NCBI RefSeq assembly: GCF_965641715.1
Contig: NZ_OZ282453.1
DNA: 64,000 nt
From: Escherichia coli
GTDB lineage: Bacteria; Pseudomonadota; Gammaproteobacteria; Enterobacterales; Enterobacteriaceae
Reading direction: 5' to 3' (one strand)
Shown here in pieces: positions 34,300-35,635 of this stretch. The position numbers were made by a program, and so were the translations under genes. Every line of letters begins with the position of its first letter. Position 1 is the first letter of the stretch. The notes under the pieces were generated by a model. That model had not been told where the DNA came from. It saw only the letters and a program-made list of their open reading frames with translations, and searched no databases.

Positions 34300-34857
34300 A
34301 TGAACGACAGAGAATTTAGAGCGATGCTTCAGGCATCGAGACAACGTAACAGATACAACTCCTACAGCTACACAGACACCCCCACCAGCTACGAACTACC
34401 CAAGCTCACCAGAGCAGAACGCAAAGGCCTTGATGAATTAATTCGTAGCATTACGCCACGAGATAGATTTATGCCAACCAGAAAGAGCACGAAGAACACT
34501 ATTAAAAATTATCTGGCTAACTTTGACAGCTACGAACAATTACCAAGTAAGCTTGATGATGTAATTATCGGATTCTGTAGAAGTGAAGGTCACCCGAAAT
34601 ACAACAAAAAACTATTTTATCTTCTAAAGAATCTTGACGAAATTAACTCAGCCACCGTGACAAATCATCTTCAGCGTCAAGCAACCAGACTTAGCCATGA
34701 ATTACCAAGCGATAAATATTGCGCTTTGCTTGCTGTAATGTGCGCAAAGTTAATTGGTGTTGTTGAGCATCATATTGCCGTTGGAAATATTGAGCCAATG
34801 GAAAACGAGCAACCAGATTTCGAGTTTGACCCGTATTTAGTTACAGAGGAATTTTAA
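34300..34857 (+). CDS. hypothetical protein (185 aa), first gene of a four-gene coupled operon
   Basis: ORF with RBS-like aagga upstream; followed by abutting or overlapping ORFs. Confidence 0.5.
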   Translation: MNDREFRAMLQASRQRNRYNSYSYTDTPTSYELPKLTRAERKGLDELIRSITPRDRFMPTRKSTKNTIKNYLANFDSYEQLPSKLDDVIIGFCRSEGHPKYNKKLFYLLKNLDEINSATVTNHLQRQATRLSHELPSDKYCALLAVMCAKLIGVVEHHIAVGNIEPMENEQPDFEFDPYLVTEEF

Positions 34858-35136
34858 ATGAAGAAACACACTTTGACCCGTATTTCAGAAGAAGCCTTTC
34901 ACGAGCTTACCCGAATTAAACAGACAACTAACCTCCCTCATCAAACTGTTATGCAGCTTGCAATTGCTAAAGAGGTTACTGAGTCGGATTTACTGAAATA
35001 TCCAGTCTCTAAAGGTCGTAAGCACATCCGAATTACTCAGGACGCTTTAGATACTTTGAAGGCACTTAACAACTTTAAAATTGATATCGCCCGACTATTG
35101 AGTATTAAGATTCACAAGTTAGCAATGGGGGTTTAA
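34858..35136 (+). CDS. hypothetical protein (92 aa)
   Basis: ORF abutting the preceding stop. Confidence 0.45.
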   Translation: MKKHTLTRISEEAFHELTRIKQTTNLPHQTVMQLAIAKEVTESDLLKYPVSKGRKHIRITQDALDTLKALNNFKIDIARLLSIKIHKLAMGV

Positions 35137-35351
35137 TGCTATGCGTTACCTTTGAATACCACACGGATAAAATGATTCGCTACATCTCCGACCTCCTGAT
35201 TGAAGGAAACGGATTCGGTGACATCCATAACTCAAAAGATATTTTCATTAAAGCCATTGGCCCAAATGAAGTACTGAAAACAGCAGTTAAACCGGAATGG
35301 TTTGAGCGTCACAAGATTGAATTAGGTTATTGGGGTGAGGAGGTTTTATGA
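35136..35351 (+). CDS. hypothetical protein (71 aa)
   Basis: Start overlaps the previous stop. Confidence 0.4.
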   Translation: MLCVTFEYHTDKMIRYISDLLIEGNGFGDIHNSKDIFIKAIGPNEVLKTAVKPEWFERHKIELGYWGEEVL

Positions 35352-35635
35352 AACCTTGGCATGAAGATGTTAGACGATATTTTACAGAACACCTTATCTA
35401 TGATGAATCCAGTGATTCCCTGTGCTGGTCTGATGGAGAGTCAGTCACGATAAACACCGACGACTACGGCAACAAAACATTTAATATAGGCCGATATACT
35501 TTCTACGTGAAATATGTTGTCTGGTTCCTTTATCATGGCTATCAATCCAACAAGCAAATTATCCATCGAAATGGTAACAGAGCCGATACCAGACCAAAAA
35601 ATCTTATGCAAGTCCGAGACTTTAAGAGAAATTAG
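35348..35635 (+). CDS. HNH-endonuclease-like small protein (95 aa)
   Basis: C-terminal IIHRNGNRADTRPKNL resembles the H-x-[DN]-G-N-x-x-[DN]-N-x-x-x-N-L core of phage HNH endonucleases; ATGA overlap with the preceding gene. Confidence 0.45.
   Translation: MKPWHEDVRRYFTEHLIYDESSDSLCWSDGESVTINTDDYGNKTFNIGRYTFYVKYVVWFLYHGYQSNKQIIHRNGNRADTRPKNLMQVRDFKRN

Follow-up and report, generated by a model that had tools for sequence, protein, structure and literature searches.

PLEs of V. cholerae are phage satellites, and the nuclease-derived proteins NixI and CapR take part in their conflict with the helper. They are chromosomal islands, ~10-18 kb in size, that have a large serine recombinase but lack capsid and terminase genes, and their helper is a virulent myovirus. 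Together with the large serine integrase they encode their own tape-measure and baseplate-type proteins, and these tail proteins are 19-41% identical to those of the helper (PMC11838301). In this study, an integrative island was delimited in a window of 64,000 nucleotides (the whole stretch of Escherichia coli DNA that was analysed, to which all positions in Table 1 refer), and it resembles PLEs in its size, in its large serine recombinase, in having no capsid or terminase genes, in carrying its own tape-measure protein (TMP) and a baseplate-type protein similar to those of a virulent myovirus (here 32% and 75% identity), and in encoding a nuclease-derived protein. On the other hand, it differs from PLEs in host family and helper genus and has no recognisable RepA-type initiator; the likeness is that of an element that works like a PLE, not of one that is a PLE. 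In the literature open to searching we found neither a satellite of a virulent Felix O1-like phage nor a description of this island family. Its gene content makes it likely that the island is a satellite of Felixounavirus, and we infer a satellite life cycle for it. As to the four ORFs treated below (g1, g2, g3 and the HNH gene), we favour with modest confidence the reading that they are the promoter-proximal cluster of this island, which is most likely a phage satellite of Felix O1-like virulent myoviruses.

Table 1. Features of the island and of the four-ORF cluster in the window
Feature	Position	Strand	Size	Remarks
Whole integrative island	30991-42529		11.5 kb	GC 0.35-0.43; inserted in first codons of wrbA; delimited by comparison with empty site L006 and GC profile
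Non-coding segment	31750-31905	+		Shares homology with a conserved stretch, not annotated, in ~150 Felix O1-like phage genomes
Dam-type N6-adenine methyltransferase fused to resolvase-type HTH	32597-33265	+
Divergent promoter-like site	34187-34216	-		TTAACA-18-TATAAT with TG; back to back with P1
Upstream paired site	34200-34216	+		TGTTAC-N5-TGTTAA; abuts P1 -35
Promoter P1	34223-34251	+		TTGACA-17-TAGTAT, upstream TG (extended); predicted driver of cluster
Downstream paired site	34262-34278	-		TGTTAA-N5-TGTTAA, inverted; just 3' of predicted transcription start
g1	34300-34857	+	185 aa	Conserved core gene
Recombination cassette g2-g3-HNH-spacer	34847-35797	+	~950 bp	Exchanged between island backbones
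g2	34858-35136	+	92 aa	Conserved core gene
g3	35136-35351	+	71 aa	Variable-slot gene
HNH gene	35348-35635	+	95 aa	Optional cassette gene
ORF downstream of HNH gene	35792-36121	+	109 aa	Without family match
Promoter P2	36188-36240	+		TTGACA-17-CATAAT; P1-like architecture and same upstream TGTTAA pair
Two ORFs	36708-37653	+	236 aa and 71 aa	Directly 5' of TMP gene; no family match
Tape-measure protein (TMP)	37735-39864	+	709 aa
Dit-like tail/baseplate protein	40000-40794	+	264 aa
Large serine recombinase (integrase)	40814-42457	-	547 aa

The core GTGCTTT, inside a 10-nt overlap, is found at both island junctions (~30981-30990 and ~42530-42539). The non-coding segment (156 nt) is ~70% identical to Felix O1-like phages with a 26/26 core, the TMP shows ~32% identity with wV8 gp74 across residues 1-478 and 70% in its final 17 residues, and the Dit-like protein is 74-75% identical to Felixounavirus gp75, whose gene lies directly 3' of the TMP gene; this phage relative is present in ~300 Ounavirinae genomes and always adjoins TMP. 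The 236-aa and 71-aa ORFs are placed where the phage has its tail-assembly chaperones, and the RefSeq label 'transposase' for the 236-aa protein was not supported by Pfam, PHROG or NCBIfam. Islands with the same gene order were identified at no fewer than three chromosomal sites (wrbA, tonB and yecE), each with its own integrase, and the architecture measures 10-11 kb at every such site. The cluster occurs in 383 of 5426 E. coli genomes and was never found on plasmids or in deposited phages; megablast and blastn of the cluster DNA against phages gave no match, tblastn against wV8 gave no phage counterpart of g1-g4, and an IMG/VR search aimed at particle-derived copies returned 4 long contigs that were uninformative. 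An Rfam scan of the island yielded nothing at E up to 0.1, and PADLOC gave no match for the left-arm cargo proteins. Among the copies themselves, some carry IS insertions and pseudogenes, a small recombinase gene has been lost from the one in the window, and genome NZ_LT594504 holds two islands, with the window-type HNH in one only.

A preliminary description of this DNA had proposed a translationally coupled four-gene operon of abutting or overlapping ORFs of 185, 92, 71 and 95 aa, and the coordinates and junctions are exactly as claimed: g1 and g2 abut (TAA followed directly by ATG, 34857/34858), g2 and g3 overlap by 1 nt (TAATG at 35136), and g3 and the HNH gene overlap by 4 nt (ATGA at 35348). 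The ORFs are more than chance, since all four are annotated in RefSeq relatives, are kept across divergent islands and evolve under purifying selection (dN/dS: g1 0.11-0.37, g2 0.11-0.24, g3 mostly 0.06-0.4, intact HNH copies 0.00-0.08). The coupling stands, but the four genes are not a natural unit: across the island family g1 and g2 are the only constant genes of the cluster and form its conserved unit, and the distal genes are interchangeable cassettes. No terminator-like site was found between the HNH gene and the ORF at 35792-36121, so that the transcription unit probably comprises more than four genes, with this ORF probably as the fifth gene of the cluster transcript.

The promoter reported at 34223 upstream of the cluster was likewise borne out as near-consensus, with 10/12 matches. 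P1 is nearly invariant among 9 islands although the flanking DNA of different backbones is only 20-40% identical, and the divergent leftward promoter-like site is conserved in all islands. The paired sites around P1 keep their places as well, the upstream pair at -100 and the downstream pair at -38 from the g1 ATG (9/9 islands each), and TGTTAA pairs recur at ~+1890 in every island in which that region is covered. For TGTTAA-N5-TGTTAA, 0.52 matches would be expected in the window and 0.99 in the first 50 kb of wV8; the observed counts are 7 and 18, respectively, and none of 100 shuffles reached either. In wV8, 14 of the 22 genome-wide matches fall within 14357-14945, where the sites form an 11-bp-phased array in the gene-free region of the phage. 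The strong promoter P1, bracketed by TGTTAA pairs, would drive the cluster, and because the motif is common to P1 and the phage array, expression of the cluster would be tied to the helper. The pairs may be bound by g2 and/or by a helper-phage protein; for g2 itself, we give such binding somewhat less than even odds.

The two constant genes differ in what can be predicted for them. g1 encodes an orphan helical domain (residues ~60-165) followed by a disordered acidic/aromatic C-terminal tail (PDFEFDPY..EEF); NCBIfam, Pfam and a PDB sequence search gave nothing, and the g1 fold recurs in uncharacterised proteins of virulent phages. A 102-aa ORF adjoining the remote g1 relative P0235 was considered as a relative of g2 and found to be unrelated. 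TraY, known from the F-plasmid relaxosome, is a single-chain ribbon-helix-helix (RHH) dimer that binds oriT, and it binds trains of phased sites and helps to place a DNA-nicking enzyme. The AF2 model of g2 (pLDDT 64-85) shows a beta-alpha-alpha unit twice in one chain of ~92 aa (E4-10/H11-24/H28-36 and E54-60/H61-70/H77-92), an arrangement like that of TraY, and the g2 beta-strands are invariant. In the PDB, the top 22 Foldseek matches are all chains of TraY or of DndE (probability up to 0.99, E 0.07-0.7), which are thus the sole consistent structural neighbours of g2. g2 has no significant sequence similarity to either and, unlike them, no relaxase or dnd gene context: resemblance to DndE stays below the cut-offs (Pfam E=0.06, 14 vs 25 bits; NCBIfam TIGR03184 E=0.0013, 19 vs 71.85), the N-terminal half aligns with CopG by hhalign at P=0.0016, no curated RHH or DndE family matched above cut-off, and a PDB sequence search gave nothing. 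By hhalign the internal repeat of g2 is not significant, and its assignment as a tandem RHH protein comes from the AF2 model. On that model, g2 is predicted to be a single-chain tandem RHH protein of TraY/DndE type, and it is quite probably a sequence-specific DNA binder.

The HNH-like motif noted earlier in the 95-aa protein, HRNGNRADTRPKNL, spans residues 73-86, and a profile search, proposed at the time as a check, supports it, with residues 53-89 covering positions 2-39 of the 46 of Pfam HNH_3 (PF13392) at 34.3 bits against a cut-off of 24.8 bits; PHROG HNH families 99 and 959 also match. As we read the motif, H73 and N85-L86 are present, an Ile precedes the His, D80-T81 replaces 'NN', and the C-terminal N95 is the candidate metal-binding Asn. 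Pfam finds no second domain besides HNH_3, and thus no DNA-binding or target-recognition module. The HNH part of an AF2 fusion model reaches a pLDDT of only ~25-60, from a shallow alignment of 3 near-identical clusters, the g3 part is also of low confidence, and no HNH structure was among the Foldseek matches of this low-confidence model. A PDB sequence search for the HNH gave chance scFv matches, and the sole phage match is a Sulfitobacter phage protein with 30% identity. An HNH_3-like paralogue, 39% identical, lies at another junction of the cluster in 67 genomes; it has Phe at the position of the catalytic His and is nevertheless retained (dN/dS 0.11-0.23). Since a paralogue without the catalytic His is kept under selection, cleavage is not to be assumed as the selected function. 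The HNH protein may well be an active nuclease, by a narrow preference, and we lean somewhat more firmly to the view that it serves the island rather than itself alone.

The distal part of the cluster occurs in several states: g3 with HNH, as here, g3 alone, a 128-aa HTH protein alone, or the HNH paralogue with one of three genes after it, namely g3, the gene of this same 128-aa protein or that of a 76-aa protein. No family was recognised for g3 in NCBIfam or Pfam. At one and the same chromosomal site, island L002 has the HNH gene and L003 lacks it; the HNH-less junction of the strain C4 type reads TATTGG followed directly by TAGCCCGAGAC, and the last five g3 codons (GEEVL), which carry the ribosome-binding site of HNH, are missing in L003, the one HNH-less allele examined. 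In 12 of 12 sampled islands, g2 is of type A where an HNH-like gene is present and of type B where it is absent, and the window-type HNH is always accompanied by a g2 of the 'ISEEAF' type. A conserved RNA structure in the spacer 3' of the HNH gene was considered and dismissed, with 5 weak pairs only, and islands that encode the 128-aa protein have an unrelated spacer. The window's HNH occurs in 225 genomes with an identity that never falls below 95%, and it groups into 6 protein clusters against 1084 for g1; its dS does not exceed 0.2, whereas g1 has 0.17-0.5 among islands of one backbone type and >1 between types. The HNH gene is an optional, recently spread, strongly conserved add-on and not a core part of the cluster.

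This pattern recalls the homing endonucleases of the I-HmuI/Mob type and ICP1 HNH-3, which likewise have an HNH_3 domain, are sporadic and uniform, and sit at the centre of a recombination tract (PMC10055350). The HNH gene might accordingly be a purely selfish, free-standing homing endonuclease gene that cuts the HNH-less alleles of islands which co-reside or co-infect, whereupon repair copies it in together with its flanks, with no benefit to the island. Such a gene would be expected to occur sporadically at a fixed site between conserved genes, as the HNH gene does in 225 of the 383 clusters, and to be far more uniform than its flanks, as it is (at least 95% identity against 70-99% for the cluster); one backbone has a 100% identical HNH protein beside a g1 of only 63% identity. 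In a 60-nt sliding comparison of the window, L002, L003 and L013, combined with per-gene identities, identity is highest around HNH and drops sharply at 34847 and 35797, as in a co-conversion tract; there is one frameshifted HNH copy (n=1), the paralogue adds a second HNH_3-like gene at a different junction, and phage nuclease genes mark recombination boundaries (PMC10055350). However, the constraint on HNH, measured over dS up to 0.2, is tighter than that on the neighbouring genes, its 95 aa hold no NUMOD, AP2 or zinc-finger module or other DNA-binding or targeting domain in contrast to homing endonucleases, and the persistence of the Phe-bearing paralogue is not explicable by homing. Moreover, the limits of the exchanged tract coincide with gene boundaries and g2 and g3 are transferred whole, as in modular exchange, and only one of the two islands of NZ_LT594504 carries this HNH. 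Pure homing is therefore unlikely.

The small coupled cluster with a nuclease had also been taken as typical of anti-phage or phage-interference modules and of packaging-associated HNH proteins. The first part holds in the broad sense of a phage-interference context, because the cluster is located in an apparent phage satellite, but no known defence system was recognised, with no significant match in PADLOC-DB 2.0 either for g1-g4 or for the proteins that occupy the slots in other islands. We consider it very unlikely that the cluster constitutes an autonomous anti-phage defence system (a nuclease effector with sensor and regulator proteins) that only rides on a mobile island and works independently of a satellite cycle, even though it combines a nuclease with small coupled genes on such an island, its variable distal slots resemble a cargo hotspot, and satellites and islands often bear defence hotspots (PMC9122126): g1 and g2 are constant and the nuclease is optional, so that the nuclease cannot be an obligatory defence effector, and the operator-like motif of the promoter is common to one specific phage family, which suggests a dedicated helper relationship. 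The packaging role fared worse. HK97 gp74 and the island protein are alike in being small HNH proteins that lack a DNA-binding domain and come from a phage-related element, such proteins of HK97-like phages serve terminases (PMC10055350), and satellite DNA must be packaged somehow, hence the HNH could aid the terminase on concatemers of island or helper. Yet it belongs to HNH_3 and not to PF01844, no terminase or portal gene lies nearby, it is missing in ~40% of islands and the helper phage encodes no relative of it, which leaves this role with almost no credence. Hardly credible either is the view of the island as what remains of a decayed prophage, with the four ORFs as leftover early genes that now lack a role. 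The RefSeq-annotated tail genes (TMP and 'phage baseplate protein') beside an integrase, the IS insertions and pseudogenes of some copies and the loss of the small recombinase gene here would fit decay, but the phages to which the tail genes are related are Felixounaviruses, which are strictly virulent, the same architecture recurs at its different sites with different integrases and 70-99% divergence, purifying selection acts on all four genes, and the positions of promoter and motifs are conserved.

Under the satellite reading that we prefer, the distal part of the cluster (g3 and HNH here) is a hotspot of interchangeable cassettes, and the HNH would be an accessory effector of homing-endonuclease ancestry that has been spread between backbones by recombination and kept by strong purifying selection. 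Its target is probably DNA, which it would nick, cleave or bind, perhaps jointly with g2 of the 'ISEEAF' type. A more detailed scheme, which we regard as quite improbable in its entirety, is that the cluster is a helper-sensing switch joined to a DNA-targeting module: TraY-like g2 on the TGTTAA pairs would keep the two strong promoters repressed, the ~20 phased TGTTAA sites in the origin-like gene-free region of a replicating helper would titrate g2 or be bound by it and thus turn the satellite on, and the mini-HNH would nick or block DNA at the arrays, either sabotaging helper replication, as NixI does, or starting satellite replication in the manner of a relaxosome.

Felix O1-like phages are classic phages for typing, biocontrol and therapy in Salmonella and E. 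coli. If the islands behave as PLEs do, ~7% of sequenced E. coli as well as strains of Salmonella, Citrobacter and Shigella bear a dedicated parasite of Felix O1-type phages, and such a parasite could make these phages less effective and carry DNA from strain to strain. 'Chimeric tail' satellites would then be known outside Vibrio too, and in a host open to genetic work, where the conserved promoter with its helper-shared operator-like motif and the predicted TraY-like DNA binder offer testable handles. The pair of HNH_3-derived proteins, of which one seems to lack the catalytic His, could show the domestication of homing nucleases in the conflict between phages and their satellites.

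The four ORFs of the preliminary description (g1, g2, g3 and the HNH gene, together the cluster) were recovered at exactly its coordinates, and its abutting and overlapping arrangement was likewise borne out, the junctions being an abutting TAA and ATG, then TAATG, then ATGA. The promoter placed ahead of the cluster corresponds to a TTGACA-17-TAGTAT promoter-like site with an upstream TG (P1), and the HNH-like motif of the last protein to a Pfam HNH_3 match of 34.3 bits, above the 24.8-bit cut-off, with further matches to PHROG HNH families. The g1, g2 and g3 proteins had no Pfam, PHROG, NCBIfam or PADLOC family match except sub-threshold DndE matches for g2. 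All four ORFs are genuine genes, since they are annotated in RefSeq relatives and pairwise dN/dS was 0.11-0.37 in g1, 0.11-0.24 in g2 and, for the most part, 0.06-0.4 in g3, with intact HNH copies at 0.00-0.08.

Positions of the features discussed, in the window and in compared sequences
Feature	Window	Strand	Compared sequence
Island (low GC)	30991-42529
Shorter relative of the 83-nt unit	31132-31179
Replaced segment (~800 bp)	31336-31761		L001 9512-10319
Shared non-coding segment (156 nt)	31750-31905		wV8 14903-15059
15-nt part of the palindrome	33506-33520
83-nt unit, two tandem copies	33575-33751
Region of the Cys-rich ORF	33805-34216	-
Terminator-like hairpin, Cys-rich ORF	33857-33834
Leftward promoter-like site	34216-34187
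P1 and surroundings	34187-34280
P1	34223-34251
g1	34300-34857	+
g2	34858-35136	+
g3	35136-35351	+
HNH gene	35348-35635	+
Cassette	~34847 to ~35797
P2	36212
P2-to-hairpin stretch	36212-36500
Terminator-like hairpin after P2	36474-36496
Start of 236-aa ORF	36708
Last 17 residues of island TMP	39811-39861		wV8 45432-45482
20-nt palindrome	40793-40812		wV8 14702-14722
Replaced first wrbA codons	42509-42540
Phased TGTTAA array			wV8 14357-14945
Left-arm cargo ORFs			L003 8437-10181; L008 6049-6882
Split g1			L012 3453-4007
Gene block headed by g1 relative			L015 3104-4174

Of 5426 complete E. coli genomes, 383 carry the cluster, with identities of 70-99%; it was always in the chromosome and never in deposited phages, and islands with the same gene order occupy wrbA, the region upstream of tonB and the inside of yecE, each with its own serine integrase. 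Homologues of g1 and g2 are restricted to Escherichia, Shigella, Salmonella and Citrobacter; wherever they are named, it is as hypothetical or uncharacterised proteins. Across the islands compared, g1 and g2 are constant and the distal part varies: a 71-aa g3 followed by the HNH gene (the window, L001, L002, L009, L010, L011 and L013), a 66-aa g3 alone (L003), an unrelated 128-aa protein whose C-terminal part is an HTH (L007, L008 and L012), or, immediately behind g2, a second HNH_3-like gene with g3, the 128-aa protein or a 76-aa protein next (L016-L018). The "four-gene operon" proposed earlier therefore exists in the window as one configuration, and the family pattern is best read as a conserved two-gene core with a cassette hotspot. 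Since no terminator-like site follows the HNH gene, the 109-aa ORF beyond it probably belongs to the same transcript. In the IMG/VR-derived L012, g1 is broken into 79-aa and 65-aa ORFs with the rest of the cluster intact, either a pseudogene or a sequencing error.

The window-type HNH gene occurs in 225 genomes, all copies being at least 95% identical and 148 at least 99%, and its protein forms 6 clusters among 5.8 billion proteins, versus 1084 for g1 and 94 for g2. Identity to other islands climbs from 71-89% in g1 to 95-98% from g3 through the HNH gene to the spacer and collapses at the next gene. In a four-way alignment, L002 follows the backbone of L003 (an island at the same chromosomal site) through g1, switches to the window type and then returns to the L003 type, therefore a ~950-bp cassette moved between backbones; the HNH protein is also 100% identical in an island whose g1 is only 63% identical to that of the window. 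Such uniformity and cassette spread form a sequence pattern typical of homing endonuclease genes. However, purifying selection on the gene is very strong (for example, none of the 7 differences separating the window copy from that of L001 changes an amino acid), and no DNA-binding module was found in the HNH protein. One copy is frameshifted. The second HNH_3-like gene encodes a paralogue at the other junction, 39% identical to the HNH protein and present in 67 genomes (all copies at least 95% identical). It scores just under the Pfam cut-off and has Phe at the catalytic His position (IIFRDGN vs IIH73RNGN), yet its dN/dS is still 0.11-0.23, thus at least this lineage is kept for something besides canonical HNH catalysis. 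Among 12 sampled islands, g2 of the "ISEEAF" type always accompanies one of the two HNH-like genes and g2 of the "VTKTAF" type never does, which could reflect functional pairing or mere linkage. The earlier interpretation is partly right, as the HNH domain and the phage-interference context were retained. The HNH protein matches no known defence system (PADLOC) and is not an HK97-type packaging factor. As judged from sequence, it is a putative effector derived from HNH_3, carried by only some of the islands, spread horizontally and nevertheless under strong constraint.

A full HMMER scan of g1 against 1.84 billion representative proteins gave only 22 matches: a single full-length cluster, some fragments, and six remote relatives that have residues ~60-165 in common with it. 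The same residues form a confident helical core in the AF2 model (pLDDT 80-91), with a loose N-terminal part and an acidic/aromatic C-terminal tail that is disordered in the model and invariant in sequence. There was no structural neighbour of g1 in PDB; BFVD matches (E-values 5.6e-7 to 1e-2) were uncharacterised proteins, the named ones from virulent Pseudomonas and Klebsiella phages. One remote relative (212 aa) heads a rightward gene block in the metagenomic phage-like contig L015, directly 5' of a PF01844/HNH_5-type HNH gene, thus g1-like and HNH genes adjoin in an unrelated element too. No relatives of g3 were detectable, nor was its model interpretable. The g2 alignment resolves into two repeats; each has a predicted beta-strand that is invariant (HTLTRI/V in one, HIRI in the other), and AF2 models beta-alpha-alpha twice (pLDDT 64-85). 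All of the top 22 Foldseek PDB hits were ~105-120-residue F-plasmid relaxosome chains or DndE, with modest E-values (0.07-0.7). The relaxosome paper describes three TraY chains, F TraY being a whole RHH dimer fold in a single polypeptide. Sequence-level support is sub-threshold, and a TraY/DndE-like tandem RHH fold of g2 is a well-supported prediction from the models.

The window is E. coli chromosome, and comparison with an empty site delimited the low-GC island, inserted within the opening codons of wrbA and bounded on both sides by a short repeated core. The island replaces these codons and brings a new start and ribosome-binding site, leaving the gene intact with a new 13-residue N-terminus where the empty site has MAKVLVLYYS; wrbA is also a known integration site of Stx prophages. 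Besides the cluster, the island carries genes for a fusion of a Dam-type methylase with a resolvase HTH, a 709-aa tape-measure protein (TMP), a Dit-like protein (264 aa) and a large serine recombinase (547 aa), and ORFs of 109, 236 and 71 aa without family match; capsid, portal and terminase genes are absent from it. Upstream of the methylase, relatives carry a ~182-aa small serine recombinase (resolvase/invertase type) that is missing from the window's island, where ~800 bp are replaced relative to L001 and tblastn found no trace of it. Between the attachment site and the recombinase/methylase genes, L003 and L008 carry strain-specific unannotated ORFs without PADLOC or Pfam match, this left arm being a possible cargo hotspot. 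Within the 1 kb of non-coding DNA that separates the methylase gene from the cluster, an 83-nt unit occurs twice in tandem (94-nt period, the copies 90% identical), with a related shorter copy elsewhere in the island; the repeat could represent an origin or an element of iteron type.

The Dit-like protein shares 74-75% identity with the protein encoded immediately after TMP in ~300 Ounavirinae genomes, most of them Felixounavirus. Island and phage TMP are ~32% identical over residues 1-478; identity reaches 70% over the last 17 residues of the island protein, although the ~200 residues before these show no detectable similarity to the phage TMP; the conserved C-terminus fits a kept contact with the 75%-identical Dit-like protein. 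A non-coding segment matches an unannotated region of ~150 Felix O1-like genomes (~70% identity, with a 26/26 core) and is a candidate for a shared site of replication origin, packaging or regulation. An identical 20-nt palindrome, AATTGGTATTGTTACCAATC, lies in the gene-free gap of the Felixounavirus phage wV8 and, in the island, between the Dit-like and integrase genes, which are convergent; a 15-nt part of it also recurs in the island. The remaining island proteins, the four of the cluster included, have no counterpart in wV8. Felix O1-like phages are virulent, therefore the island is not their prophage.

P1 and its surroundings are nearly invariant in nine islands, with flanking DNA only 20-40% identical, and a second strong promoter, P2, has the same layout. 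The paired motif TGTTAA-N5-TGTTAA, one mismatch allowed, occurs 7 times in the window (0.52 expected), five times within the island, and four of these five matches bracket P1 and P2. The sites on either side of P1 (-100 and -38 from the g1 start) occur in 9/9 islands, and the site upstream of P2 (~+1890) in all eight whose compared sequence extends that far. The first 50 kb of wV8 contain 18 matches (0.99 expected), and 14 of the 22 genome-wide form an 11-bp-phased TGTTAA array in the only large gene-free gap of the phage (1.6 kb). From these shared sites we infer that one DNA-binding protein would recognise the island promoters as well as the array in the phage. The candidates are g2, whose predicted DNA-reading strands are invariant like the sites, and a protein of the putative helper phage; either would couple cluster expression to that phage. 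A terminator-like hairpin lies ~230 nt past P2, ahead of the 236-aa ORF, and the stretch between may specify a small RNA or act as a regulated leader; a regulatory sRNA is known from the PLEs of V. cholerae. On the minus strand, a leftward promoter-like site and a terminator-like hairpin flank a Cys-rich 62-63-aa ORF, hypothetical in RefSeq, which may be a non-coding transcript and not a gene.

The island resembles the PLEs of V. cholerae in its large serine integrase, its own TMP and baseplate-type protein, and its absent capsid and terminase genes. PLEs assemble chimeric tails with ICP1 parts (PMC11838301). No account of an element of this kind, whether from E. coli or associated with Felix O1-like phages, turned up in the literature searched, which by itself does not prove novelty. 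The cluster is best read as the early module of a PLE-like putative satellite of Felix O1-type phages, probably with a regulatory or DNA-handling role.
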